NCBI GenBank assembly: GCA_036655915.1
Contig: JAVVPE010000002.1
Location: forward strand, 362-64,361
From: Raoultibacter sp.
GTDB lineage: Bacteria; Actinomycetota; Coriobacteriia; Coriobacteriales; Eggerthellaceae
DNA length: 64,000 nucleotides
Direction of reading: 5' to 3'
Below are positions 5,987-27,392 of this stretch, piece after piece; the first letter of the stretch is position 1; the number at the start of each line of letters is the position of its first letter. The notes under the pieces were generated by a model that was not told the DNA's origin, did not search any database, and saw only the letters and a list, made by a program, of their open reading frames with translations. The translations under genes were made by a program, and so were the position numbers.

Positions 5987-7222
5987 ATGAATATAACCGA
6001 CGAACAATTTGTGCTCATTAAAGAGCAATTCAAGACGTTGAAGCAGCGGTCTGCCTTTTACGCCTTAATTTTCGACGGTATTGAACTGGCTGATGTGCAA
6101 ACGCAGGCCGATTTTGAGAAGCTGCCGTTTTCCGAAAAAGACGATTTGCGCCGCGTGTACCCTTTAGGGCTCGCTGCTGTTCCGGAAGAAGAAATCGTAC
6201 GCATCCATTCTTCATCGGGCACCACGGGCACGCCGGTTATCATTCCCTACACCGCACAAGATGTGGAAGATTGGGCTATCCAATTTGCGCGCTGCTACGA
6301 AATGGCGGGCATCACCAGCCGCGATCGCATTCACATTACGCCAGGTTATGGCCTGTGGACGGCGGGCATCGGCTTCCAGCTGGGTGCCGAAAAACTGGGC
6401 GCCATGGCCATTCCGATGGGCCCGGGTAATACCGATAAACAACTGCGCATGATGGAAGATTTGCAATCCACCGTGCTGTGCGCCACCAGTTCCTACGCGC
6501 TGCTTTTGGCGGAAACTATCGCTGAACGCGGCATTCGCGACAAGTTATGCCTGACCAAGGGCGTTATCGGCTCCGAACGTTGGGGCAGCAAAATGCGTGC
6601 GCGCATCGCCGACGAACTGGGTGTTGAACTGTTCGACATCTATGGCCTCACCGAAATATACGGCCCCGGCATCGGCATTTCATGCCCCGAACACGCGGGT
6701 ATGCACTACTGGAGCGATTACATTTACTGTGAAATCATCGACCCCAAAACGGGCGCTGTGCTGCCCGACGGCGAAGTGGGCGAACTGGTTATCACGACGC
6801 TGCGCAAGCAGGGCGCGCCGCTGATTCGCTATCGCACGCACGATATGACGCGCATCATCCCCGGTCAATGTGCTTGTGGGTCGCACTTCCCCCGCATCGA
6901 CATGCTGGTGGGTCGCACCGACGACATGGTGAAGGTTAAAGGCGTCAACATGTTCCCCGCGCAGATTGAAGAGGTCATTTCGTTTACCGATGGGGCATCT
7001 TCTGAATACCAGGTGATGATCGATCATCTGTTTGGCAAAGACATCATCACGGTGTTTTTTGAAACCGCCTGCACGGGTGATGAACTCAAGCGCGCCGAAG
7101 AGGAACTTTCCTTCATATTCAAGGGGAAAATCGGCTGTACGCCGGTGGCCAAGGGCGTGCCCTTGGGCGATTTGCCGCGTTCCGAGAAAAAAACCCAACG
7201 CATTTTCGATAACCGATATTAA
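5987..7222 (+). CDS. paaK: Phenylacetate-CoA ligase family (adenylate-forming) enzyme
   Basis: AMP-binding core HSSSGTTGTPVIIPYT and YGLTE; length and C-terminal ACT-like region match the PaaK family. Start chosen at ATG 5987 (MNITDEQF); the track ORF begins upstream at 5900. Confidence 0.85.
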   Translation: MNITDEQFVLIKEQFKTLKQRSAFYALIFDGIELADVQTQADFEKLPFSEKDDLRRVYPLGLAAVPEEEIVRIHSSSGTTGTPVIIPYTAQDVEDWAIQFARCYEMAGITSRDRIHITPGYGLWTAGIGFQLGAEKLGAMAIPMGPGNTDKQLRMMEDLQSTVLCATSSYALLLAETIAERGIRDKLCLTKGVIGSERWGSKMRARIADELGVELFDIYGLTEIYGPGIGISCPEHAGMHYWSDYIYCEIIDPKTGAVLPDGEVGELVITTLRKQGAPLIRYRTHDMTRIIPGQCACGSHFPRIDMLVGRTDDMVKVKGVNMFPAQIEEVISFTDGASSEYQVMIDHLFGKDIITVFFETACTGDELKRAEEELSFIFKGKIGCTPVAKGVPLGDLPRSEKKTQRIFDNRY

Positions 7223-7224
7223 TA

Positions 7225-7276
7225 GCACACGGGCATCTGACAACCTGCAACAGCGGGCTGCCGGATGGCCGTGTGC
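7225..7276 (+). terminator. Long stem-loop downstream of paaK (possible terminator without a U-tract)
   Basis: Arm GCACACGGGCATC (7225-7237) pairs with GATGGCCGTGTGC (7264-7276), one mismatch. No T-run follows. Confidence 0.35.
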
Positions 7277-7426
7277 ACTTTCCGCAGCACCTCGCGTGTG
7301 GCAGCACAAAAGTTGCACGTGCGAGTGGCAGGGTGGCAAGGTCTTGTGCGTGTCACTCTAGGCAAGGTGAAGAATTTAATTTTGTCGGTTTTGTCGGTTG
7401 AAACCGTTGGATAGTAAGGAAATGAA

Positions 7427-8962
7427 ATGGTAGAAAAAATAATAATGGTGCTTATATTCATCGCGGTGGCGGTGGGTATTGGCATCTTTTGCAAAAAGCA
7501 TACGAAAAGTGTGGACGGGTTCATTTTGGGCGGCCGCAACGTGGGGCCGTGGTTTTCGGCCTTCGCGTATGGCACCAGCTACTTTTCGGCGGTTATCTTT
7601 GTGGGATATGCCGGGCAGTTTGGCTGGAAATACGGCATTGCCGCCGCGTGGATCGGCATTGGCAATGCGGTGTTGGGCAGCTTGCTTGCCTGGTGGGTGC
7701 TTGGGCCGCGCACGCGCGAAATGACGCAGCGTCTTAAATCGGCCACTATGCCGGAATTTTTCGGCGCGCGCTACAACAGCAAGGGGCTGCGCATCGCTTC
7801 GGCCGCCATCATCTTCGTGTTTTTGATCCCCTACACCGCGTCGGTCTACAACGGCCTCTCGCGCCTGTTCAACATGGCGTTCGGCCTGCCCTACGAGGTG
7901 TGCGTTATCGGAATGGCAGCAGTGACCTGCGCCTATGTTGTGCTTGGTGGCTACATGGCCACGGTGGTGAACGATTTTGTGCAGGGCATCGTCATGCTGT
8001 TTGGCATCGTGGCGGTTATCGTGGCCGTGCTTATCAACAACGGAGGCTTCACCGAAGCCATCACGTCGCTGTCGCTTATTCCTGCGGAAGGTTCAGCCAT
8101 GTCTGGCCCCTTTGTTTCCTTCTTCGGACCAAACCTGCCCGATCTTATCGGCGTCGTTATTCTTACTTCGCTAGGCACGTGGGGCTTGCCGCAGATGGTG
8201 CAGAAGTTCTACGCCATCAAAAGCGGTCCGGCCATCAAGCAGGGTGCCATCATTTCCACGATGTTCGCCATCGTCGTGGCGGGAGGCAGCTACTTTTTGG
8301 GCGGCTTCGGGCGCCTGTATGGCGGGCAGGTAGAATTGAGTGCTGCGGGCACGCCGGTGTATGATTCCATCATTCCCACCATGCTTTCTAGCTTGCCTGA
8401 TCTGCTGATTGGCATTGTTATCGTGCTGGTGCTTTCCGCTTCGATGTCCACGCTTTCTTCGTTGGTGCTTACCTCATCTTCTACGCTAACGCTTGACCTG
8501 ATTAAAGATAACCTGGTCAAAAACATGAGCGAGAAAAAGCAGATCGGTTTCATCCGCGTGCTCATCGTGGTGTTCGTGGCTATTTCGGCACTTATCGCGC
8601 TGTACCAGTACAATTCTTCAGTTACGTTTATTGCCCAGCTGATGAGCATTTCTTGGGGCGCGCTGGCCGGATCGTTTCTGGGGCCGTTTTTCTGGGGACT
8701 GTTTAGCGGGCGCATTTCCAAAGCGGCCGTATGGGCAAGCTTCATCATGGGCGTGGGCTTAACGGTTTCCAACATGTTCATCGGCTTCATCGCTTCGCCC
8801 ATCAACTGCGGGGCGCTGGCCATGGTGTTATCCATGGTTATTGTGCCGCTGGTAAGTTTGCTAACCCCCGCCGTGCCGTTTTGCATTGAGCCGCCGCACC
8901 AAGAAGGCGCGATCGACCGCGAATACGAACACGAAATCGAAGAAGAAGGCGCCGCTTCCTAA
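7427..8962 (+). CDS. Sodium:solute symporter (SSS family) transporter
   Basis: 511 aa, about 13 hydrophobic segments, N-terminal pattern GGRNVGPWFSAFAYGTSYFSAV typical of PutP/PanF-like SSS proteins. Substrate unknown. Confidence 0.8.
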   Translation: MVEKIIMVLIFIAVAVGIGIFCKKHTKSVDGFILGGRNVGPWFSAFAYGTSYFSAVIFVGYAGQFGWKYGIAAAWIGIGNAVLGSLLAWWVLGPRTREMTQRLKSATMPEFFGARYNSKGLRIASAAIIFVFLIPYTASVYNGLSRLFNMAFGLPYEVCVIGMAAVTCAYVVLGGYMATVVNDFVQGIVMLFGIVAVIVAVLINNGGFTEAITSLSLIPAEGSAMSGPFVSFFGPNLPDLIGVVILTSLGTWGLPQMVQKFYAIKSGPAIKQGAIISTMFAIVVAGGSYFLGGFGRLYGGQVELSAAGTPVYDSIIPTMLSSLPDLLIGIVIVLVLSASMSTLSSLVLTSSSTLTLDLIKDNLVKNMSEKKQIGFIRVLIVVFVAISALIALYQYNSSVTFIAQLMSISWGALAGSFLGPFFWGLFSGRISKAAVWASFIMGVGLTVSNMFIGFIASPINCGALAMVLSMVIVPLVSLLTPAVPFCIEPPHQEGAIDREYEHEIEEEGAAS

Positions 8963-13597: not shown

Positions 13598-13678
13598 CCT
13601 TTCACGCTTTTTGTGATAAAATATCTCAAAAGTGGTAGTGCATTCCATATTTGAGAAGTTTTGAGATTCGAGGCAAGC

Positions 13679-14950
13679 ATGTATGTCACACGCGCTCTTG
13701 AGCCTTTAGTGAAAAGGTATGCGGAAAACTTTAAGGTTGTCGTGGTGACCGGGCCGCGGCAGGTGGGTAAAACAACCATGCTTAAGCACCTTATGGATGA
13801 AGAGGCCCAGCGAGGCATTAGGCGCATCTATGTAACACTTGACGACACCGCTGTGCTGCAAACAGCCAAAGATGACCCGGCCCTTTTTTTGCAACGCTAT
13901 CACCCTCCCGTCCTGATTGATGAAATACAAAAAGCCCCCGAGCTTCTTTCCGCCATCAAGATGATTGTTGATGCAGACGACGCTTGCGGCTCCGTTTGGC
14001 TTACGGGATCTCAGCCGTTTCACCTGATGAAGCAGGTATCTGAATCGCTAGCGGGACGGGTGGGCGTCATAGAGTTGTTGGGGCTTTCCGCCGCAGAGAT
14101 AGCGGGCGTATCCTCCGAGCCATACTGTCCAAGTGCTGATTACTTCATACGGCGTGTTGCCCAAGCCAAGCCGCTTGGCGTATCCGAGGTCTATGCACAT
14201 ATGCTGGCGGGCTCGTTTCCCGGAATTCGCGCGCTATCTGCCGATGTGCGGGCGGGTGCTTATGAATCGTATTTGGGCACCTATATTCTGCGTGATATTC
14301 GCGATTTGGCGCAAGTGGGCGATGAACTCAAATTCAGGCGGTTTATGGCAGCGTGCGCGGCTCTTACTTCCAAGCCGGTGGTCTATGCCGAATTGGCACG
14401 GCTGGCTGATATCGATCAAAAGACGGCGAAAACGTGGCTTTCGTTGCTGGTCAGTTCTTATGTGGTCAAGCTGGTCGAGCCCTACGCAAACAACCTGCTC
14501 AAACGCCTAAGCAAGCAGCCAATTATGCACTTTTTGGACACTGGTTTGGCCGCCTATCTTGCGGGTTGGAGCAGTGCCGAAACCTTGGAATTAGGGGCAA
14601 TGAGCGGTCAGATTTTTGAAACATTTGCTTTTACTGAAATTTATAAAAGCTTCCGCAACGCAGGCCAGCGCGCTCCGCTTTATTTTTTTAGAACTAACGA
14701 TAAAAAAGAAATCGATATGCTTATGGAACAAGATGGGACGCTTTATCCCATCGAAGTGAAAAAAAGCGCTTCACCAGGCAAAAAAGACACGCGCAATCTA
14801 GGTGCCCTTGATCCCGTGACCGCCGCAGATGTGCCACTGGATTTAACGACCTTCAAGCGCGCAATCGGCACGGGATGCATTCTGTGTTTGGCCGCCGACA
14901 CCTTCCCCATAAACTCTCGCGCCTGGGCCTTTCCCGTATGGGCGGTGTAG
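13679..14950 (+). CDS. AAA+ ATPase of the COG1373 / DUF4143 type
   Basis: Walker A GPRQVGKTT, Walker B LIDEIQ, C-terminal EIDMLME...PIEVKKS nuclease-like tail. ATG 13679 is preferred over the TTG at 13661 used by the ORF track. Confidence 0.8.
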   Translation: MYVTRALEPLVKRYAENFKVVVVTGPRQVGKTTMLKHLMDEEAQRGIRRIYVTLDDTAVLQTAKDDPALFLQRYHPPVLIDEIQKAPELLSAIKMIVDADDACGSVWLTGSQPFHLMKQVSESLAGRVGVIELLGLSAAEIAGVSSEPYCPSADYFIRRVAQAKPLGVSEVYAHMLAGSFPGIRALSADVRAGAYESYLGTYILRDIRDLAQVGDELKFRRFMAACAALTSKPVVYAELARLADIDQKTAKTWLSLLVSSYVVKLVEPYANNLLKRLSKQPIMHFLDTGLAAYLAGWSSAETLELGAMSGQIFETFAFTEIYKSFRNAGQRAPLYFFRTNDKKEIDMLMEQDGTLYPIEVKKSASPGKKDTRNLGALDPVTAADVPLDLTTFKRAIGTGCILCLAADTFPINSRAWAFPVWAV

Positions 14951-15015
14951 AAGCCGAAGGCAGTTGAGAGATGGAGTTTGCCGGCACCCTACGCCGCTGA
15001 TTTTGGCGCAAAAAC

Positions 15016-15038
15016 AGCCCGGGAAGGGCTTTTTGTTG
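15016..15038 (+). terminator. Weak rho-independent terminator after the ATPase gene
   Basis: AGCCC-GGGAA-GGGCT hairpin followed by TTTTTG. Confidence 0.45.
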
Positions 15039-15198
15039 TCGTTCATGTCGCTGGATTTGCTGTTCATGACAAATTGCAGACTTTTTCCGCGTAAGGTTCT
15101 AAGGTGTAGCCAGCAAGAAAACGCAGCATCTGTACCGTCTGAAACCCCGTTGCTGCACGCACGCACGCCCGCAGCGACCGACACAAAGGAGTATTACC

Positions 15199-15354
15199 AT
15201 GTGCATTATTGATTATTTGCTTATCGCCGCCATCGTCGTTTCCGCCCTTGCCTTCGGCATCACGCTTCTGTATTTGCGCAACAAGGCAAACAACGCCGAT
15301 GGTGCCACGCTTACCATCACGGGTGGTTCAGGGCTGAACACCAAAAACGACTAG
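15199..15354 (+). CDS. Unannotated 51-aa small membrane peptide; candidate precursor/signal peptide of the downstream cassette
   Basis: My own translation: MCIIDYLLIAAIVVSALAFGITLLYLRNKANNADGATLTITGGSGLNTKND. AAGGAG at 15186-15191 with a 7-nt spacer. Codon usage resembles the neighbouring genes. Too short for the ORF track. Confidence 0.55.
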   Translation: MCIIDYLLIAAIVVSALAFGITLLYLRNKANNADGATLTITGGSGLNTKND

Positions 15355-15382
15355 AGTTAGCAGCTTTTACTGCATAGCGCAA

Positions 15383-15428
15383 GAAAAGTGTGTCATACCA
15401 GCAAACCCGCTGGTCGAAAGTGTCATCC
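15383..15428 (+). promoter_or_regulatory. Imperfect direct repeat upstream of the LytTR regulator gene (candidate LytTR boxes)
   Basis: AAAGTGTGTCATACC (15385-15399) and AAAGTGTCATCC (15417-15428), about 32 bp apart, 90-130 bp upstream of the regulator start. Confidence 0.25.
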
Positions 15429-15516
15429 TTTGCTAACATAGACCCCGAACATATAAAGGTTCTTTGCTTTGCGCTGCTGCGCAATAAGGTGCAAAGAAAG
15501 AAGAGGGGTGGCAACG

Positions 15517-16245
15517 GTGATACGGCTTTGTTTGTGTGATGATGATCCACAGTTTCTTGCCGCTTGCAGAAAAAAGGCAGACAGTTTAGTTGCTCGCAAT
15601 AACTTAGAGGTGGAAACCAAAGAGTTTGAAAGTGGCGAAAGCCTGCTGTTCTTTCTGGACGAAAACGTTTCCTACTTCGATTTCATCATGATAGATATGT
15701 TGATGGGCGAACACAATGGCATCGAAACCGTGCAGATACTGCGCGATCATGGCTATGAGGGTATCGTTGTATTCCTTACTTCAAGCAAGGAATACGCTCT
15801 GGAATCCTTTAGTGTGGCACCCTTCAATTACGTGTTGAAACAAGATATGGCAACCGATGCCTTCGACAAGATATTTTTGGATGCCATCGAAGCGGTGAAG
15901 AAGGCCGAAGAACAAAAACTGGTCATTTCAACGCGGCGTTCTTCGATTGTGATGAACCTTGATGACATTATTTATATTGAAAGCAATCTGCGCAAATTGA
16001 TTTTCCACACGGTTAAAGGGAACCAAGATGCGCAATACGCCTTAGATGACGTGTTTGCCAAAACGAGAGAGCATGGTTTTTTGCGCTGCCACAAATCTTT
16101 TGTGGTCAACAGCCGCTTTGTAAAATCATGTTGCAGAACGGAGGTTGTTTTGACCACGGCTGAAACTATCCCCCTGGGTCGCACTTACGCGGATGATTTT
16201 GAGCATGGTTTGCTCAAATGTCTTCGTGAGAAGATAACGTTGTAG
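15517..16245 (+). CDS. LytTR/AlgR family response regulator
   Basis: Receiver domain (VIRLCLCDDDPQF..., DFIMIDMLM) plus C-terminal LytTR domain (IIYIESNLRKLIFHT...FLRCHKSFVVN). GTG 15517 (purine-rich AGAGGGGTGG upstream) is preferred; ATG 15469 is the alternative. Confidence 0.88.
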   Translation: MIRLCLCDDDPQFLAACRKKADSLVARNNLEVETKEFESGESLLFFLDENVSYFDFIMIDMLMGEHNGIETVQILRDHGYEGIVVFLTSSKEYALESFSVAPFNYVLKQDMATDAFDKIFLDAIEAVKKAEEQKLVISTRRSSIVMNLDDIIYIESNLRKLIFHTVKGNQDAQYALDDVFAKTREHGFLRCHKSFVVNSRFVKSCCRTEVVLTTAETIPLGRTYADDFEHGLLKCLREKITL

Positions 16246-16256
16246 GGAAGAAACCT

Positions 16257-17603
16257 ATGGAACTCGAATTCGTTTGCGTGGCGATGATGACGGTTTATAA
16301 CTGTCTTGTTATGGATTATTGCTCCAAAATTTTGGAGACGCGCCTTCCTAAGATTATCGTTTTTGCGCTGCTGCCTTTGTTGGCGGCTTTGCTATTTTTG
16401 GTGCCGATTGCCCTGGATGTGCTCATTCCCCTTATCTATGCGCTGGAATTTGCGGTCACCTTCCTGGTTATCCGCATAAGCTTTTATGGCAGATTCATCC
16501 ATATGTTTTGGGCGGCACTCAACTTTACCTTTCACACCCTTGTTATCAGGGGCATCGTGCTTGCCATTGCTTCATTGGCGGCTAACTTAAACATGTACCG
16601 CGTGATTGAAGATGGCCTGCTCAACATGCTTACACTGATCGCGACATTTTTTGTGCTGTGCCTTTTCTTGGTGGTGTTCAATGCGAAGGTTGATGTTCCC
16701 AAAGTAAAAATTCTCTTAAGCAACCCAGGGCAGCTAAAGTTTGTCTACATGCTGCAGCTGGTTATGCTTGGGTTTTTGCTGTTTTGCACCTATGCCTACT
16801 ATTACAACCTCGATCTTGTTTGGTTTACCATCTTTCACTTGCTTACCTGCGTGTTTGTGCTTATCGGGTACTACATCGCGTTTGGCATGGCGGTGCGCAC
16901 GGCGGTGTGGGTTGAAGATGAACTGAACTACCAAATTGTCGAAGCGCAGATGCAGCGCCAAATTCGTGGGTATGAAGAACAAAAAAAGCTCTACGATTTG
17001 ATGCGCCAATACAAGCACGATTTCAAAAGAATCCTTAACACCGCAAACGGCCTTTTGGCGACGGGCAACGTTGAGGAAGCCCAGGAACTTTTGGGCGAAA
17101 CGGTTACCTATGCCGATGTTAACCTGGCGCCGCGGCCAGAATACTCCAACATTCTAATCGTTGATATTGTTTTGGACGAACTGGCGGATAACTGCGATAA
17201 AAACGACATCGAACTAAGCGCTCAGTGCTTCATTTCAGAAGATGTAACCCTAACTTCGTTGCAGCTGTGCCGCATGTTCAACAATTTGGCGGCCAACGCA
17301 CTGGAGGCCTGCCAACGGCAAGCTGAGGGCAGCAAGCGTTGGATTGACATTAAAGGCCGCCTGCAAAAGGACAAATCCGTTATCGTAATGCGCAATTCCT
17401 TCGATGGAAAAGTGGTTATGGCCGGCGAAAACGAACTGGCTACCCGCAAAACAAACAAGGAATACCACGGTCTTGGCGTGCGCAATATCAAGGCCATCGT
17501 TGAAAAGAATCAGGGATTTTCCGAAATCACCATTTCCAAAAATCCCAACGTGTTTGAATTCTTCATCGCGTTGCCCCTGCAAGAAAAGCAAGGCGAGGAA
17601 TAA
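16257..17603 (+). CDS. Polytopic sensor histidine kinase, AgrC/ComD-like (peptide-sensing HPK10 type, GHKL ATPase)
   Basis: About 6-7 N-terminal TM helices. H-box QYKHDFKRILN, N-box FNNLAANALEA, G-boxes RNSFDG and HGLGVRNIK. Confidence 0.85.
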   Translation: MELEFVCVAMMTVYNCLVMDYCSKILETRLPKIIVFALLPLLAALLFLVPIALDVLIPLIYALEFAVTFLVIRISFYGRFIHMFWAALNFTFHTLVIRGIVLAIASLAANLNMYRVIEDGLLNMLTLIATFFVLCLFLVVFNAKVDVPKVKILLSNPGQLKFVYMLQLVMLGFLLFCTYAYYYNLDLVWFTIFHLLTCVFVLIGYYIAFGMAVRTAVWVEDELNYQIVEAQMQRQIRGYEEQKKLYDLMRQYKHDFKRILNTANGLLATGNVEEAQELLGETVTYADVNLAPRPEYSNILIVDIVLDELADNCDKNDIELSAQCFISEDVTLTSLQLCRMFNNLAANALEACQRQAEGSKRWIDIKGRLQKDKSVIVMRNSFDGKVVMAGENELATRKTNKEYHGLGVRNIKAIVEKNQGFSEITISKNPNVFEFFIALPLQEKQGEE

Positions 17604-18223
17604 TGAAGTGGGGGGTGGCAGGAGTACTCGTATTCTTTGCCATTAACGCCGTGCTCCTTTTTTTCAGCGTTATCAACCCTGTAACGTTTACTCAGCTTGC
17701 TCAAGATCCCGCAGCTACCATGGCAAAATATCAGGATGTTTGGAATGACACGACGGTGCACGAAGCCCCCGTCAGGGAAAAGATATATGCTGTGGGCGAT
17801 GTGGTGGGCACCGTCACAATCCCCAAGCTTGAAATTTATGAGATGCCCATTTACTACGGCACGACCGACGAAAACAAAAACTGGCAAATAACAACGCCGG
17901 GCTATGCGGGCAACTGGCAGCTGTTTGGGGAAAAGGGGATGGCGGCGCTGGGTGCCCACAACTACCAACTTTTCAGCAAGTTGGAAAAGTTGGGTGTGGG
18001 GGAAAAAGTTATCGTGGAAACCATCGATGACATCTACGTTTATGTGGTGCAGGAAGCGGGCGTCTACGATCACACCAAGCAGGATTGGGCCGATGCTGTC
18101 TATACGGGCAAGGAACCCTACTCAATCGACCTGCTTACCTGCTATCCCGCAGACGTGCTTGACACGCAAGACCGCTACGTTGTGTATGCCACCATGCAAA
18201 AAGGCACCATTTTTGTGAACTAG
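17603..18223 (+). CDS. Sortase family transpeptidase (class not assignable by eye)
   Basis: N-terminal TM anchor. Sortase pattern VGTVTIPKLEIYEMPIYYGT. Catalytic His (LGAHN), Cys in DLLTCYP (TLxTC-like), Arg in DRYVVYA. Its ATG overlaps the kinase stop (TAATG). Confidence 0.8.
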   Translation: MKWGVAGVLVFFAINAVLLFFSVINPVTFTQLAQDPAATMAKYQDVWNDTTVHEAPVREKIYAVGDVVGTVTIPKLEIYEMPIYYGTTDENKNWQITTPGYAGNWQLFGEKGMAALGAHNYQLFSKLEKLGVGEKVIVETIDDIYVYVVQEAGVYDHTKQDWADAVYTGKEPYSIDLLTCYPADVLDTQDRYVVYATMQKGTIFVN

Positions 18224-18244
18224 GGCAGCGCTTGGTCCTCTTCC

Positions 18245-19540
18245 TTACTGGATGCCCAGCACCTGCATAACCAGCAGTATTGCGGTTAGCAGCGTCACGA
18301 TTCCTACCGATACCCAGAGGATAATCTTTGACAGGGGCTTGCTGCAGTAGGCACCCATGATATGTTTGTCGGCGGCGATGATGGCCATGAAAATCAGCAG
18401 CACGGGCAAAATGATGCCGTTTACAAACTGTGCGGTTAACATGACGCCCATAAGGTCAATGTTGGGCACCAGCACCACGACGGCCGAAAAGGCAATGACG
18501 AAGGTGAAGATGCTCTTGAACAGCGGCGCTTCCTTCCATTTGAACGACACGCCCGCTTCCCAGCCAAACGCTTCGCAGATAACAAATGATGTGGTTAAGG
18601 GCAACACGCACGCAGCCAAAAATGATGCGGCGATAAGCCCTACAGCAAACAGCGCTTCGGCGTAATGGCCGGCAAACGGTGCCAGTGCGCTGGCGGCATC
18701 GGCTGCACTGGTGATTTCGATGCCCTGGGGAAACAGCACGGCGCCCGTGGTAACGATGATGAACCAGGCCACCAGGCAGGCGGCCACGGTGCCTGCTATA
18801 ACATCAACTTTTTGCGAAAAGAAATCTTTGATGCCCACACCTTTTTCCACCACGTTGCTTTGCGCGAAAAACATCATCCAGGGCGCAATGGTGGTGCCTA
18901 TCATGGCTATGACCAGCGAAACGAAGCTCTGATCTTGCACAACGTGCGGCACGACGGTGCTGCTAAGGGCGGCGCCCCAATCGGGGGTGGCCATAAACGC
19001 TGCGATGGCGTAGGTTACAAACACCAGCGACAGTATCAAAAATACCTTTTCCACGCGCTTATAGCTGCCGCCTACCACCAGCAGCCATACGGCAATGGCG
19101 GCGATGGGCACCGAAATGTAGCGGGAAACGCCAAACATTTCCATGCCTGAAGCAATGCCGGCAAATTCCGAAAAGGTGGTGGCAATGTTGCCCACCAGCA
19201 GGGCTAACATAGCCAGCGCGGTAAGGCGGATGCCAAAGCGTTCGCGGATGAGTGCTGCAAAGCCTTTGCCGGTAACGGCACCCATGCGCGCCGCCGTCAT
19301 CTGCACCACAATCAGCAGCACGCACATAACCGGTATAACCCACAGTGCCGTGAACCCGAATTTGGCGCCCACAGTGGAATAGGTTGAAATGCCGCCGGCA
19401 TCGTTGCCCGCCATCGCGGTCACAATGCCCGGGCCCATGGCGGCCAGCAACAACCACATTTTGCCGCGCTGCTTTTTTTCCGGCGCGAGGGTGGCAAGTT
19501 CGTCTGTGGCGGGGGATAGGTCGGTAAGTTTTTCAGTCAT
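18245..19540 (-). CDS. Nramp (SLC11) family transporter with NRMT-like (Mg2+-type) site substitutions
   Basis: Start set at ATG 19540 (GGAGG upstream). TM1 motif is DAGG (19391-19402) instead of DPGN. TM6 motif is IAPW instead of (A/V)MPH. Confidence 0.85.
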   Translation of the reverse strand: MTEKLTDLSPATDELATLAPEKKQRGKMWLLLAAMGPGIVTAMAGNDAGGISTYSTVGAKFGFTALWVIPVMCVLLIVVQMTAARMGAVTGKGFAALIRERFGIRLTALAMLALLVGNIATTFSEFAGIASGMEMFGVSRYISVPIAAIAVWLLVVGGSYKRVEKVFLILSLVFVTYAIAAFMATPDWGAALSSTVVPHVVQDQSFVSLVIAMIGTTIAPWMMFFAQSNVVEKGVGIKDFFSQKVDVIAGTVAACLVAWFIIVTTGAVLFPQGIEITSAADAASALAPFAGHYAEALFAVGLIAASFLAACVLPLTTSFVICEAFGWEAGVSFKWKEAPLFKSIFTFVIAFSAVVVLVPNIDLMGVMLTAQFVNGIILPVLLIFMAIIAADKHIMGAYCSKPLSKIILWVSVGIVTLLTAILLVMQVLGIQ

Positions 19541-22950: not shown

Positions 22951-24246
22951 CTAATTGCTGCACGCCCGATATATCCTGCTTCTGCCTTCGCCCCGGGCTT
23001 CTATCAGGCCTTCGTCGATCATGCTGTTGAGAAGACGTATGGTGCTTGACTGGGATGATCCGAGTTCTTCCTGGATAAGACGGCGTCCCCTAGGTGCATT
23101 TTCTAGCAGGGAAAGTACTCGCTGCATTTCTTCGCTTGGTTCGCTTTGAGGCTTGGGGCTGTTGTTGAGATTGGGCAAAAATACCGTGAAGGTGTTGGGG
23201 GTTTGAGAGAGGCGTGCGCTTGTGCCGGAGCTCGTATAGCTTTTCATGATGCGCCGGATTCCCGTGCCATAAGCTTCTATCAACTCAAGGCGGAAAAACA
23301 CGTTGGCCAAAAGACGGTTGCGAGGCATTGAGACATGAGCGGAAAGATCGGCTGCTGTCAAGCCTATAGGCAATCCTCCAAGCGAGACAATTTCTACACC
23401 ACTTTGCATCACAGAGATAAGTGTTGGTCCGGAAAGGGCGTATTCTCGATGGACAACGGCATTGAGTAGTGCCTCGCGTAGGGCAACTTCAGGATAATCA
23501 CGATGATCGGTGCGGGTCAGTCCTTTGAATGTGGTTACGTAGTGATTGCGTTGTTCAAGATAGTCAAATGCCTCATCCATTTGCCTAAGAAGGGACCCAG
23601 AAAATTCCGCGCGGTCGGTGAAAGTATCGCGATCGGCTCCTTCAAAAGAAGCTGCCTTGATGGTGGGTGGACACTGGTCGGACAAAAGTCGCGCCAGGTT
23701 AGTGAATAGCCCGTCGGAATTGATAAGCCCAAGCGTGCGTTTCTCGGCATCTCCAAAAGCAAGTTTCTTCTTTGCAAACCACGCACAGGCATATTCGAAA
23801 GAAAGGTTCTGCTCAAAAGACCTCATTGTTTCAAATGCATCGCCATCGGTTGCCTTAATCATGGAGACGATAGCGCTTTCGCCTGCTGGCACACTGGCTG
23901 CGCCACTCCGAACATAAACCCCTTCGGGACGCAGGCCTTTTGCGGCAAGGTAGTAGGGGCGCTTTGTGCCTTTGGCTACGCGAGCAATTACGACGGGCAT
24001 CCCCTCGATCTGCTCTGTAGAAACATGGGTCATCATCACGACATCGGGCTTGATAGCCATTTGCATCTTGTTGGTCAGTTTGAGCATTTCGGCATCACTA
24101 TCTTTGACGCCGACAACTTTACCGCAATCAGCAACTCCGACAAACAAAGAGCCTCCCTCGGTATTGGCGAAGGCCGCTATTGTTTTTATCGCGCTATCAT
24201 TTACCTGTAGCTTGTACTCTGTGGTCATATCTTCTTGGCCCAGCAT
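22951..24246 (-). CDS. AlbA_2 (Schlafen-like) DNA-binding + HATPase_c_4 + C-terminal wHTH protein ('RecG-like' putative transcriptional regulator, COG2865 type)
   Basis: N-terminus EYKLQVNDS...IAAFANTEGGSLFVGV is typical of the AlbA_2 domain. Central REALLNAVVHREY. C-terminal wHTH (RRLIQEELGSSQSSTIRLLNSMIDEGLIE). Confidence 0.8.
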   Translation of the reverse strand: MLGQEDMTTEYKLQVNDSAIKTIAAFANTEGGSLFVGVADCGKVVGVKDSDAEMLKLTNKMQMAIKPDVVMMTHVSTEQIEGMPVVIARVAKGTKRPYYLAAKGLRPEGVYVRSGAASVPAGESAIVSMIKATDGDAFETMRSFEQNLSFEYACAWFAKKKLAFGDAEKRTLGLINSDGLFTNLARLLSDQCPPTIKAASFEGADRDTFTDRAEFSGSLLRQMDEAFDYLEQRNHYVTTFKGLTRTDHRDYPEVALREALLNAVVHREYALSGPTLISVMQSGVEIVSLGGLPIGLTAADLSAHVSMPRNRLLANVFFRLELIEAYGTGIRRIMKSYTSSGTSARLSQTPNTFTVFLPNLNNSPKPQSEPSEEMQRVLSLLENAPRGRRLIQEELGSSQSSTIRLLNSMIDEGLIEARGEGRSRIYRACSN

Positions 24247-24377: not shown

Positions 24378-27300
24378 TTAAACTTCGGAAAGGTCGGCGC
24401 TGTTGATGAGGCAGGCCTTTTCGTTATCAAGCCAGTCAATCCATGAAGTGGTGACCTTAAACCGCACATCCGCTTCGGGGCTGTAACGCGTGATCGTATA
24501 GAGCGGTCCCCCGTTTTTTTCCAGGCTTTGCATGGGGCAGTTGGGGCAAGGTTTATCGTTGTTCCACAGCGCCTTGTGGCACACATCCCCCACGCCTGCC
24601 GAAGGGATGTTTGTGCGGGTTTTGTCGTTTACAAACAGCAGCCTATGCGTGCGCGGATTGCACATGTAAGCGTAGGAATCAAGGTTGTTTATCAGCGAAA
24701 ACGCAACGTCGCTTGTGGCTTGCAGCTGCTCAAATGCGCGCATTTCCGTAATGAAAACGCTTAAGATGTTGGCGAAGTTGCGGTAATCGTTGAGCTCTTC
24801 TGCTTCCGGCGCACGTTGTTGCACGCATTCATCGAAGCCGATAAAGCCCGCGAAGTGCCCCTTGCGCATGATGGAAAACTGCAGCGTCGTTTTAGCATGC
24901 TGCGCTTGAAAGATTTTTTCAAGCGGTGTTTTTGCGGCGGCGGAGTTGGTTAAAAGGAACATGCCTTCCTGGCCAAAGTTGGCGCTATAATCGCCCAGGT
25001 CGGCGTAGGTTAATCCCAGGTTTTCAAGCTGCAGCGGCGCAATGCCTTCGTTGTGCCATTCAAAGGTGCAGCGCGCATGGGTGCCATCTTTGGAATTTTC
25101 CACAACGTAGGCGCGACTGATATGGTAATGCTTGCCTATCAGCTCTAACACCGACTTGATGGCACGCTGCTTGTCTTGTGATTCGAATAGTATGCGAAAC
25201 ACATATTCGCCGATATGGCTTTTTAAGGTGTGTGTCTTGCCTAGTTGCTGGGAATCAATGCGCGAAGGAGGTGCCGTGCTGATCTGCATTGTTGCATCGT
25301 AAAGAGAAAACTGGCTGCGGCCTTTTTGCTTCGCATCATATAAAGCCGTATCCGAATTGCGATACAGCTCGTCGTAGGTGGTGCCGTGCTTGTCGTACAG
25401 GGCAATGCCGACGCTTGTGGTAAGAGTGCGCTCTATTGTGCCTTGCGCGTAGGTTTCCGTTAAGGCGTCGCATATTTCCTGCGCCTTCAAAAACGCTATT
25501 TGCTCGCTGCTGACATTTTTCATGAACACGACAAATTCGTCGCCACCAATGCGCCCTAAAACATCGCCTGTGCGGAAGAGTTCTTTGATTTTTTCGGCGG
25601 ATTGGGATATGACGGCATCGCCGAAAGCGTGCCCAAACTGATCGTTGACTTCCTTGAAATAGTCCAGGTCAACGATAAGAAAAATATGTGTTTCTGTGCC
25701 GCATTCCGTGGATTCCAAGATCTCGTTAATTTTTTCTTCCGTTGTGGCCTTGTTGTAAAAGCCCGTCATTAAATCGTGTTGCGCGTTGTAGCGCAGCGCC
25801 AGTTCCTCCCGCTTTTCTATGTCGATATCTTCAATGTAGGCATAGCACATAAGGTCGTGGGTTTGCACATCTTCAAAAAGCTGCAGCGCGCAGCGAAACC
25901 AACGGTAGTTGTCTTCCGCGTCAAGGCGGCGGTATTCATGTTCCAGATTGTTCACGCCCAAGGTGTAGGCCTGTTTTAGGCTGGCATAGGAAAGAAACGC
26001 GTTCATTGCAGCCCTGTCCTGCGGATGGATTTTTTTCAAAACCTCGGACAGCGTGCTTTCGATGTGGTTCTTTTCGGACGTGACACCCAGCGTCGAGCGC
26101 AGTTGGTCGTATCCGAGCGCCATTGTGTCCTGCGTTATATTGAGTTCATAAATCGTCGTTGCTTTTGAAAGCGTCAGTTCATAGTGCTTGCGTTCTGCCG
26201 CAGCCTGCAGTTCATTTTTTTTGCGTTCGTCTATGTTGAGAGTGTATGCCCTGATATTGATGTCGTTGGTTATTTCGTCTTGCACAATGTTGATTTTTAC
26301 TTCAAACCACAGATAGCCCTTGTTGCGCACCCAGCGGCGATATTCGAATGTGACCAGGCGTTCCCCGTTATGGAAGGCCTCAAGAAGGAAGGTTTGTGAT
26401 TGGCGGGTAGAAAACAGCGCGCGGTCCTCTGGGGCAATGCGCGATTCGCAGATAAGGTGCACAAGTTCTGAAAAAGTGGCCGGTGGATTGATTTCGGCAT
26501 CTTGCGCCCACGAAGAGTTGTGGTAGAGAACTTTATCCTGAGTCACGTTGGCCTCGTATATAAACATGCGCTCGGAAAGCAGCTGGCTGCTGTACTCTTT
26601 TTCCTGATTGAACAGCCGCGTTTCTGTCACGTCTTTGCGCACCCCGATGGCGTAGGCGGGCTTGCCGTCGTTGCCTAAAATGCTGACCATTTGCAGTTCA
26701 AGCGTGCGTTCTGAGCCGTTTACGTCAATGGCGTAGATAGTGGTGGATGCCGCAACAGCACCTTCATCTATTTCCTGATAAAGCTTGCGCAGATTGTTTT
26801 TGCTTCGTGGCGCGATGATGCCAGAATCAATGATGGATTCGATGCCGTTTTCGATAATATTGGGCATGCGATAGGCGTCAAAATCACTGTCTTGGGTGCG
26901 GATCATCTTCGTTTTGATATTGTATTCAAACACGGTCACATCAGAAAAGCTGAGGGCGAGTTCGTTGCGCTTTTGGCTAACCCGCAAGGCTTCCTCAGTA
27001 TTTTTCTGTGCAGATATATCGAGGGTGACGCTTTGGATGACCACCGTTCCGTCTTCTTGTGTCACAAGTGTGCCGCTGTCGAGCACCCAAATAAGGGATC
27101 CATCTTTCCTGGTTAGCTGATAGTCTACCTGGAAGTGTCCCTGGGCGGCGTGTTGGGCATTGATTTCCTTCTGAAGGTTTGCGTGGTCTTCGGGGCGCAT
27201 AACGCACAGGTAATCGCTACCAATAAGTTCGCTGCGCGTGTATCCTGTCAGGGCGGCGGTGCCGTCGTTGGCGTAGAGGATGCGGCACCCTTTGTCGTAT

Positions 27301-27392
27301 TCGCACAGCTTAACACCCACCGCAGTATTGTGGTCAAGTGCTTCAAGCAGCATTAATCCATATGCTTGAGGTGGGCCGCTATTTTCCTGCAT
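24378..27392 (-). CDS. Multi-PAS / GGDEF diguanylate cyclase with C-terminal GAF and Cys-motif PAS-like domains
   Basis: 1004 aa. Several PAS repeats, GGDEF active site RIGGDEFVVF, GAF-like segment (SRAYVVENSKDG...FIGFDEC). Terminal module carries CHKALWNNDKPCPNCP. Confidence 0.85.
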   Translation of the reverse strand: MQENSGPPQAYGLMLLEALDHNTAVGVKLCEYDKGCRILYANDGTAALTGYTRSELIGSDYLCVMRPEDHANLQKEINAQHAAQGHFQVDYQLTRKDGSLIWVLDSGTLVTQEDGTVVIQSVTLDISAQKNTEEALRVSQKRNELALSFSDVTVFEYNIKTKMIRTQDSDFDAYRMPNIIENGIESIIDSGIIAPRSKNNLRKLYQEIDEGAVAASTTIYAIDVNGSERTLELQMVSILGNDGKPAYAIGVRKDVTETRLFNQEKEYSSQLLSERMFIYEANVTQDKVLYHNSSWAQDAEINPPATFSELVHLICESRIAPEDRALFSTRQSQTFLLEAFHNGERLVTFEYRRWVRNKGYLWFEVKINIVQDEITNDINIRAYTLNIDERKKNELQAAAERKHYELTLSKATTIYELNITQDTMALGYDQLRSTLGVTSEKNHIESTLSEVLKKIHPQDRAAMNAFLSYASLKQAYTLGVNNLEHEYRRLDAEDNYRWFRCALQLFEDVQTHDLMCYAYIEDIDIEKREELALRYNAQHDLMTGFYNKATTEEKINEILESTECGTETHIFLIVDLDYFKEVNDQFGHAFGDAVISQSAEKIKELFRTGDVLGRIGGDEFVVFMKNVSSEQIAFLKAQEICDALTETYAQGTIERTLTTSVGIALYDKHGTTYDELYRNSDTALYDAKQKGRSQFSLYDATMQISTAPPSRIDSQQLGKTHTLKSHIGEYVFRILFESQDKQRAIKSVLELIGKHYHISRAYVVENSKDGTHARCTFEWHNEGIAPLQLENLGLTYADLGDYSANFGQEGMFLLTNSAAAKTPLEKIFQAQHAKTTLQFSIMRKGHFAGFIGFDECVQQRAPEAEELNDYRNFANILSVFITEMRAFEQLQATSDVAFSLINNLDSYAYMCNPRTHRLLFVNDKTRTNIPSAGVGDVCHKALWNNDKPCPNCPMQSLEKNGGPLYTITRYSPEADVRFKVTTSWIDWLDNEKACLINSADLSEV

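Follow-up and report, generated by a model that had tools for sequence, protein, structure and literature searches.

In Streptococcus gordonii, the SGO_1180/1181 'C-pep' circuit is reported to work through a histidine kinase that senses the transmembrane (TM) remnant of adhesins after their cleavage by sortase (PMC11502775 and PMC11326707, on Hall et al. 2019, Sci Signal). In Bacillus anthracis, a class D sortase and its substrate share the basI-srtC operon under the activator SctR (PMC3208642). Class B sortase loci with atypical sorting signals are also known, among them SrtB-AbpA in oral streptococci (PMC4974636) and those with NPQTN or NPKTG signals. Across the six described sortase classes, position 4 of the signal is Thr or Ser (PMC8225981). 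Here we analyse a four-gene cassette of Raoultibacter sp. (Eggerthellaceae) which encodes a small open reading frame (ORF) of 51 amino acids (aa), a LytTR response regulator (RR), an AgrC-like histidine kinase (HK) and a sortase. It lies in a 64,000-nucleotide stretch of contig JAVVPE010000002.1 (assembly GCA_036655915.1), called the window below. The sortase and the kinase are one unit, genuinely and specifically coupled. The cassette is best read, with a probability of roughly 60%, as the regulatory and processing core of an autoregulated adhesin-display module and not as a pheromone circuit.

The sortase family is rare, with 15 clusters in a search of 5.8 billion proteins and 13 loci across 185,579 species genomes, and is thus no housekeeping enzyme. 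At 16 loci, distributed over Coriobacteriia and Firmicutes, the sortase gene adjoins a single family of kinases with six TM segments (6-TM) and a YYYNLDLxWF motif. Each sortase homologue with enough flanking sequence is found beside a LytTR RR/HK pair or an HK-like gene of this family; at the apparent exception, locus L020, a LytTR-type regulator is present and is cut by the contig end. The sortase and kinase genes are co-directional or divergent and the genes around them are unrelated. The hosts span two phyla and include Raoultibacter, Oscillospiraceae, Lachnospiraceae, Tyzzerella, other Clostridia, Erysipelotrichales and the cultured Anaerorhabdus furcosa ATCC 25662. A reverse scan of metagenomes that used only the kinase motif (Y[YF]NLD[LF][IV]W) returned four loci, all of them with the sortase. 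Sortase identity and identity of the kinase TM domain are strongly correlated (Mantel r 0.83; 0 of 5000 permutations as high). A first-pass annotation of the window, made by a model from the DNA alone, had proposed co-localisation of sortase, kinase and LytTR regulator in other genomes as a check, and a housekeeping sortase standing beside unrelated genes in relatives as a refutation. The trio recurs in unrelated flanking contexts, more than chance would give, and the linkage, the reverse search and the correlation clearly speak against the housekeeping explanation.

The YYYNLDLxWF membrane motif is kept in 16 of 16 aligned members of the kinase family. Its YYYN|LD part lies in a short loop preceding the last TM helix, and because that helix leads into the cytoplasmic domain, the loop is predicted to face outward. 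The window kinase is of the HPK10 (AgrC/ComD) type, with a HATPase_c_5 domain (57.3 bits in Pfam against a cut-off of 22), an H-box histidine (His254 in QYKHDF) and a polytopic sensor of at least six hydrophobic segments in residues 1-215. A PDB sequence search with this kinase returned no solved homologue. When the H-box was scored by alignment column, the phospho-acceptor His was found in 9 of the 11 kinases with an adjacent LytTR RR, the other two (L027 and L039) having Arg. It is missing in 5 of 5 kinase-like genes without an adjacent RR, and in some of these the G-box is missing as well. Such pseudokinases, which occur without an adjacent RR in L009, L012, L021/23/24 and L030/31, retain both the membrane motif and the place beside the sortase, so the membrane domain has a sortase-linked role independent of phosphotransfer.

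The window sortase belongs to the sortase superfamily (PF04203, 67.8 bits in Pfam; cut-off 26.6), yet it meets no class cut-off in NCBIfam. It comes closest to class D and class E, where it reaches about one third of the score needed (SrtD 57 of 140, class E 54.6 of 160, class D 52.5 of 165), followed by class C (42.3 of 160) and class F (19.8 of 166); the NCBIfam sortase models that matched at E <= 0.01 did not include class B. The AlphaFold (AF2) model (pLDDT 75) has the eight-stranded beta-barrel sortase fold and in Foldseek resembles SrtA, SrtC, SrtD and SrtE structures with a target TM-score of up to 0.78 and no class favoured. Among solved structures, that of the B. anthracis class D enzyme (2LN7) is nearest in sequence (E 2.5e-11). 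Hydropathy and charge predict an N-in membrane anchor with the catalytic domain outside, and a juxtamembrane segment, NPxTFTQxxQNPEKTMEKYxxVWND, is kept across the family alignment. The catalytic residues are less uniform. The window enzyme has His119, Cys180 and Arg191, but the Arg, which the annotation had listed with the other two, does not characterise the family: about one homologue in two has Met or Thr in this column. The homologue P0005, at 60% identity, has Tyr at the position of the catalytic His (SAYNYQLF) and Asn at that of the catalytic Cys (LITNYP), and looks like a pseudo-sortase.

Other basic features of the cassette were as first described. The four ORFs are co-directional on the plus strand (Table 1) and the kinase stop codon overlaps the sortase ATG (TAATG, 17601-17605). 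The residues named earlier are all present (QYKHDFKRILN, LGAHN, DLLTCYP and DRYVVYA, with His254, His119, Cys180 and Arg191, respectively), and hydropathy gives at least six TM segments for a kinase that had been said to have six or seven. The RR has Pfam Response_reg and LytTR domains, each exceeding its curated threshold (LytTR 59.8 bits, cut-off 22.6), and in NCBIfam a weak BtsR/LytR/AgrA similarity and nothing more. The 51-aa ORF matched no Pfam family. The claimed absence of AgrB and of a C39 exporter agrees with the precomputed Pfam assignments for an identical contig, which belongs to a Raoultibacter sp. metagenome-assembled genome (MAG): over 10 kb to each side they include neither AgrB nor a C39/ABC peptide exporter, and no ABC genes other than an SBP_bac_11/BPD_transp_1/ABC_tran importer set. 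An Rfam search of 14500-18800 gave no match.

Table 1. Features of the cassette and its upstream region (positions in the window).
Feature	Position	Strand	Basis or remark
Terminator-like hairpin; closes the upstream DUF4143 ATPase gene and parts it from the module promoter	15016..15030	+	Terminator scan
LytTR-type operator: GTTCATGTC, 12-nt spacer, GTTCATGAC (9-12-9, 21-bp period)	15041..15070	+	Repeat search, alignments
-10-like TAAGGT and deletion junction	15090..15106	+	Alignments of the window with L036 and L033
51-aa ORF	15199..15354	+	Ribosome-binding site (RBS) AAGGAG upstream
Inverted repeat TTCTTTGC...GCAAAGAA, 23-nt loop	15460..15499	+	Repeat search
RR, receiver and LytTR DNA-binding domain	15517..16245	+	Pfam; alternative start 15508
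HPK10-type HK	16257..17603	+	Pfam, alignments, hydropathy
HK, polytopic sensor	residues 1-215		
HK, YYYNLDLVWF	16797-16826		
HK, His254	17016-17018		Followed by HATPase_c_5
Membrane-anchored sortase, unclassified clade	17603..18223	+	Pfam, family alignment, AF2 model
Sortase, His119	17957-17959		
Sortase, Cys180	18140-18142		
Sortase, Arg191	18173-18175		

Large secreted leucine-rich repeat (LRR), BspA or internalin-like proteins adjoin the sortase in six lineages (L008, L012, L026/L028, L029, L036 and L037). No LPXTG or other CTERM sorting domain was detected in these adhesins with Pfam and NCBIfam. Wherever the C-terminus is on the contig, it has an acidic residue and x-P-x-[F/Y/L]-G, then 5-10 further residues that lead to a TM helix with a K/R patch behind it. 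The signals are DNPAFG (L029), ENPALG (L036), DQPEYG (L026/L028) and QKPDFG (L037). When all loci and the window were scanned in six frames for [NQ]Px[LFY...]G with a TM helix and basic residues after it, only the sortase-adjoining adhesins of L026/L028, L029 and L036 matched; the KPDFG signal of L037 falls outside the scan pattern and was taken directly from the ORF listing. A profile made from the four signals uncovered three more examples (ENPALG, EQPEYG and ERPEYG). Pro and Gly are the only invariant columns of the signal alignment. The order of motif, TM helix and K/R patch is that of canonical sortase substrates, but position 4 is Phe, Tyr or Leu. Large adhesins with [DE]xPx[FYL]G, a TM helix and a K/R patch are the likely substrates of the sortase, with cleavage presumably at the motif.

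The module appears to be autoregulated. The direct repeats ahead of the 51-aa ORF have a 9-12-9 arrangement, which is the geometry of AgrA/ComE-type LytTR regulators. They are the only direct-repeat family in 14950-15530, and their exact pattern is unique in the window and was reached in 0 of 100 shuffles. The operator block is nearly invariant at four promoters, two of them before the small ORF (the window and L033/L034) and two before adhesin genes (L036 and L029). A shared -10-like TAnGGT follows the block in the alignment, from which alone it was recognised, as a sigma-70 promoter scan gave no match. The L037 adhesin has a different upstream repeat with 21-bp spacing. No terminator-like site was found between the small ORF and the RR in the terminator scan, which is consistent with a single autoregulated transcript. 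The inverted repeat in this interval ends about 18 nt ahead of the GTG start of the RR, beside its RBS, and may serve translation control or attenuate the portion of the transcript that carries RR, HK and sortase.

Comparison of Raoultibacter loci suggests what happened to the adhesin gene of the window. In L036 the order is operator, adhesin, small ORF, RR. In L033 and L034 the operator is retained, and of the adhesin gene the final 37 nt remain. In the window about 7 nt of it are left: GTTCTAA (15096-15102) corresponds to the last codons and stop in L036, and the junction differs from that in L033/L034. The remnants with different junctions indicate that the adhesin gene was deleted at least twice, each time with the operator, small ORF, two-component system and sortase kept. 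The exact junction in the window is ambiguous, probably through microhomology. The window also carries an AAA_14/DUF4143 ATPase gene (13661-14950) between an Rrf2 regulator and the operator. L033, L034 and L036 do not have this gene, and in them the operator or the adhesin comes directly after Rrf2. The interval between Rrf2 and the operator looks like a rearrangement hotspot.

The 51-aa ORF is a maintained gene, under purifying selection within Raoultibacter. Its homologues in this genus are exactly 51 aa long, 75-84% identical and syntenic, directly upstream of the RR. Between the window and L033 about 29 of 38 synonymous sites differ (saturated) compared to about 17 of 115 non-synonymous sites, giving a pN/pS of about 0.2; among homologues all of 51 aa this value also rules out the ORF being a random deletion scar. 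A profile search of 1.84 billion representative proteins found nothing beyond the ORF's own cluster and a single relative, P0020, which is 42 aa long and has the same layout. In the Firmicute loci L007, L008, L009, L012, L014, L017 and L018 a small ORF conserved upstream of the RR was looked for, whether or not it had an [LP]xxTG motif, and none was found; the ORF is absent from Firmicute loci with the same trio. Lack of conservation, which had been named as evidence against a signalling circuit with this ORF, is thus half borne out: the ORF is conserved in Raoultibacter and not across the range of the module.

Hydropathy and charge predict that the small protein has an N-out TM helix (residues 6-24), an RNK patch and a cytoplasmic tail with TLTITGGSG, which is invariant among its homologues. 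In the sister strain L029, whose sortase is 94% identical, a 690-aa secreted LRR protein is encoded immediately downstream of the sortase, and its C-terminus comprises a TM helix, a basic patch and STITIAGGSGLRP. The small ORF is 55% identical to the last 40 aa of this adhesin over 40 residues (E 4e-10). From these similarities the small protein looks like the piece of an adhesin that would stay in the membrane after sorting, that is, a 'C-pep-like' stand-alone paralogue of the anchor. Since its tail is predicted to be cytoplasmic and the sortase domain to be outside, the LTITG-like motif would be on the wrong side of the membrane for the sortase. By eye, the ORF lacks the AgrD-like layout of amphipathic leader, Cys/Ser for ring closure and acidic tail. 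A reading of TLTITGG as a double-glycine leader was ruled out in the same way (a TM helix precedes the GG, and there is no LSxxELxxIxGG-type leader) and by the absence of a C39 exporter. The TITxGGSG tail was also considered as a general sorting signal and dropped for the motif ahead of the TM helix, as the tail is found only in Raoultibacter and the L036 adhesin is without it. Upstream of Rrf2 in L036, a degenerate second copy of the small ORF was detected (6581-6700; IDYLCIIVIILSVIVFGFTIRY..NTITVTGTNG), probably a pseudogene relic because it has an in-frame stop and no start codon.

The following arrangement would account for these features. The ancestral layout would have been one promoter with the 9-12-9 operator, followed by the LRR adhesin, the 51-aa gene, the RR, the HK and the sortase; loss of the adhesin in the window strain has left the operator directly ahead of the 51-aa gene, RR, HK and sortase. 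The sortase would be a dedicated extracellular cysteine transpeptidase for [DE]xPx[FYL]G adhesins, its putative substrates. The kinase would phosphorylate the LytTR RR, and the RR, presumably by binding the operator, would activate the adhesin, the sortase and its own genes together. The 6-TM domain of the kinase may touch the TM stub that cleavage leaves behind and in this way sense, within the membrane, the state of sorting. This step is suggested by the co-divergence of the 6-TM domain with the sortase and by a linkage that is kept even where the kinase has lost its His; it further draws on the homology between the small ORF and the adhesin tail and on the S. gordonii precedent. The 51-aa protein would then be a free-standing copy of the stub and possibly a feedback element on the same sensor. 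In its full form the proposal is tentative and less likely than not: an obligate pair of a new sortase clade that reads [DE]xPx[FYL]G, where the residue beside the scissile site would be hydrophobic instead of hydroxyl-bearing, and an AgrC-like 6-TM reader of cleaved anchors in the membrane, with the Raoultibacter gene as a free-standing anchor peptide that tunes the sensor. This would be hard-wired C-pep signalling on quorum-sensing hardware and a seventh kind of sortase system.

The coupling could also concern the output alone, although this seems rather unlikely. The kinase would sense an unrelated cue (from the host, the environment or a peptide made elsewhere) and turn on the operon of sortase and adhesin, with no feedback from sorting, and the 51-aa protein would be unrelated or a decaying adhesin fragment. 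The order of operator, adhesin and RR-HK-sortase is most simply read in this way, the ligand of the kinase cannot be deduced from sequence, and a precedent exists in basI-srtC under SctR in B. anthracis (PMC3208642). Kinase-like partners that lack the H-box, and in some cases the G-box, would nevertheless hardly be expected to keep YYYNLDLxWF and their adjacency to the sortase; the tight co-divergence of the pair and the constant length of the small ORF under purifying selection, unlike that of a decaying fragment, argue against output-only coupling as well. The pseudokinases without an adjacent RR would fit a 6-TM protein that is mainly a structural subunit of the sorting apparatus, recruiting substrates or lipid II or positioning the sortase, with kinase signalling secondary and shed by some lineages. 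The invariant motif, whose short loop is predicted to lie on the outer side where sortases work, the conserved NPxTFTQxxQNPEKTMEKY segment of the sortase and the dedicated signal peptidase I that often adjoins it point in the same direction. Such a role is nonetheless improbable as the main one, as most kinases, including that of the window, retain the H-box, the ATPase domain and a cognate LytTR RR, and no sortase is known to require such a 6-TM partner.

Least compatible with the data, and very unlikely, is a pheromone reading built on the first-pass annotation, which saw the sortase in the slot of the peptide-processing enzyme: the sortase would stand in for AgrB and cleave the 51-aa precursor at the LTITG-like site, and the released or cyclised peptide would be sensed by the AgrC-like kinase as a quorum signal. 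Sortases and AgrB both act through a thioester acyl-enzyme. The gene order is agr-like (a small ORF before the LytTR/HPK10 pair), the operator is of the autoregulatory type, no AgrB or C39 exporter is nearby, and TLTITGGSG does not vary between the homologues of the small ORF. But the ORF is missing from the Firmicute loci with the trio and has a single distant relative among the representative proteins, its motif lies behind a TM helix and an RNK patch, at a predicted cytoplasmic position, it is without the xPx[FYL]G motif common to the adhesins, it is homologous to an adhesin membrane anchor, and it fits neither the AgrD layout nor a double-glycine leader. The evidence favours instead the other options that had been raised, a surface-signal circuit or a circuit whose output is sortase expression.

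Several observations weigh against the adhesin-display reading and its stub-sensing step. The small ORF is nearly confined to Raoultibacter, so any role of it in sensing does not extend to the module as a whole, and the TITxGGSG tail is missing from the L036 adhesin. Binding of the RR to the operator (15041-15070) is suggested solely by geometry and conservation. Some family members may not be transpeptidases, given the Met or Thr in place of Arg in half of them and the additional loss of His and Cys in P0005. The motif is carried by about seven C-terminal signals from about five lineages, and a hydrophobic position 4 is without precedent among sortases, which use Thr or Ser (PMC8225981). No signal-bearing adhesin was found in the window by the motif scan, and the Firmicute loci L021, L023, L024, L025, L030 and L031 have no adjoining adhesin. 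Nearly all sequences derive from MAGs or metagenome contigs.

The neighbourhood of the sortase contains further recurrent genes. A type I signal peptidase (S26) often adjoins it: L007 (5572-6117; 125 bits on TIGR02227), L012 (5826-6392), L023 (11043-12244), L028 (3-722), L030 (7879-8397) and L031 (8192-8716). Between the two, L007 and L012 encode a DivIVA-like coiled-coil protein with a length of 142-157 aa. In L031, an Erysipelotrichales MAG, a trio that by eye resembles spoIIAA/spoIIAB/sigF (anti-anti-sigma, anti-sigma kinase and sigma factor) directly precedes the signal peptidase, kinase-like gene and sortase (6700-8181). The Firmicute loci L018, L020, L025, L028, L037 and L039 encode a protein of 440-456 aa, often between adhesin and sortase, in which sigma-70 regions 2 and 4 at the N-terminus are joined to a long C-terminal extension (for example L037 3127-4464 and L028 8095-9432); it was assigned by Pfam in L028 and L025, by precomputed annotation in L018 and by sequence similarity in the others. 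In L025 (6151-7727), L037 (7278-9700), L039 (6403-8919) and L018 (3837-4613) the RR-HK pair is followed by a cytoplasmic kinase-like protein of about 355 aa and a protein of about 170 aa ending in DCWAKGDRVCRF. An EAL-type protein also follows the pair in L037, L039 and L018 (on a Pfam basis for L018 only), and in L017 two GGDEF genes follow the sortase (Pfam). These EAL and GGDEF neighbours hint at a link between c-di-GMP and the adhesin module. In the window, 5-9 kb downstream of the cassette, the minus strand encodes a 1004-aa multi-PAS GGDEF protein (24378-27392) and an SLFN_AlbA_2/HATPase_c_4 protein (22951-24246).

If the adhesin-display reading is true, a new sortase clade with a different recognition motif exists, which bears on sortase-based protein ligation tools. 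LPXTG-based predictors would miss these adhesins, with consequences for surface-proteome prediction in gut anaerobes. AgrC/LytTR hardware, commonly taken as a mark of peptide quorum sensing, would supervise the anchoring of surface proteins, a caution against calling every HPK10/LytTR pair quorum sensing. The single known case of a kinase sensing a sortase remnant would be generalised, with a natural stand-alone remnant gene. The repeated loss of adhesins with sensor, sortase and small gene retained suggests adhesin turnover in gut Eggerthellaceae.

In the literature searched, no description was found of a pairing of a sortase with AgrC-LytTR or of the [DE]xPx[FYL]G motif. The module shares with agr, fsr and com (AgrBDCA; ComCDE with ComAB) an HPK10 polytopic kinase with HATPase_c_5, a LytTR RR and 9-bp direct repeats with a 12-bp spacer placed for autoregulation. 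Unlike these systems, it has no AgrB and no C39/ABC exporter, its small ORF is an anchor homologue and its constant third gene is a sortase. It does not qualify as agr- or com-type quorum sensing.

Class B loci resemble the module in that a specialised sortase stands beside one or a few adhesins and the signal is non-LPXTG with Pro at position 2. They differ in having Thr or Ser at position 4, where Phe, Tyr or Leu is found here, and in lacking an obligatory sensor kinase partner. In basI-srtC a dedicated sortase is likewise encoded with its substrate and its own regulator, and class D is the closest solved relative by sequence. The sctR and sctS genes of that system are a two-component pair. 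The class D signal, however, is LPNTA, with Thr at position 4, while the window sortase falls under the class D cut-offs and is partnered by a 6-TM AgrC-like kinase and a LytTR regulator.

The S. gordonii C-pep circuit, as described, is similar in that a kinase is tied to adhesin sorting, a TM remnant is the proposed intramembrane signal and adhesin expression is the output, which in our module would be the RR's presumed effect. There, the housekeeping SrtA acts on LPXTG and is not genetically linked to the kinase. Compared by described function, the module of the window differs by a dedicated, unclassified sortase that is syntenic and co-diverging with HPK10/LytTR, by a non-LPXTG motif and by a stand-alone gene resembling the stub.

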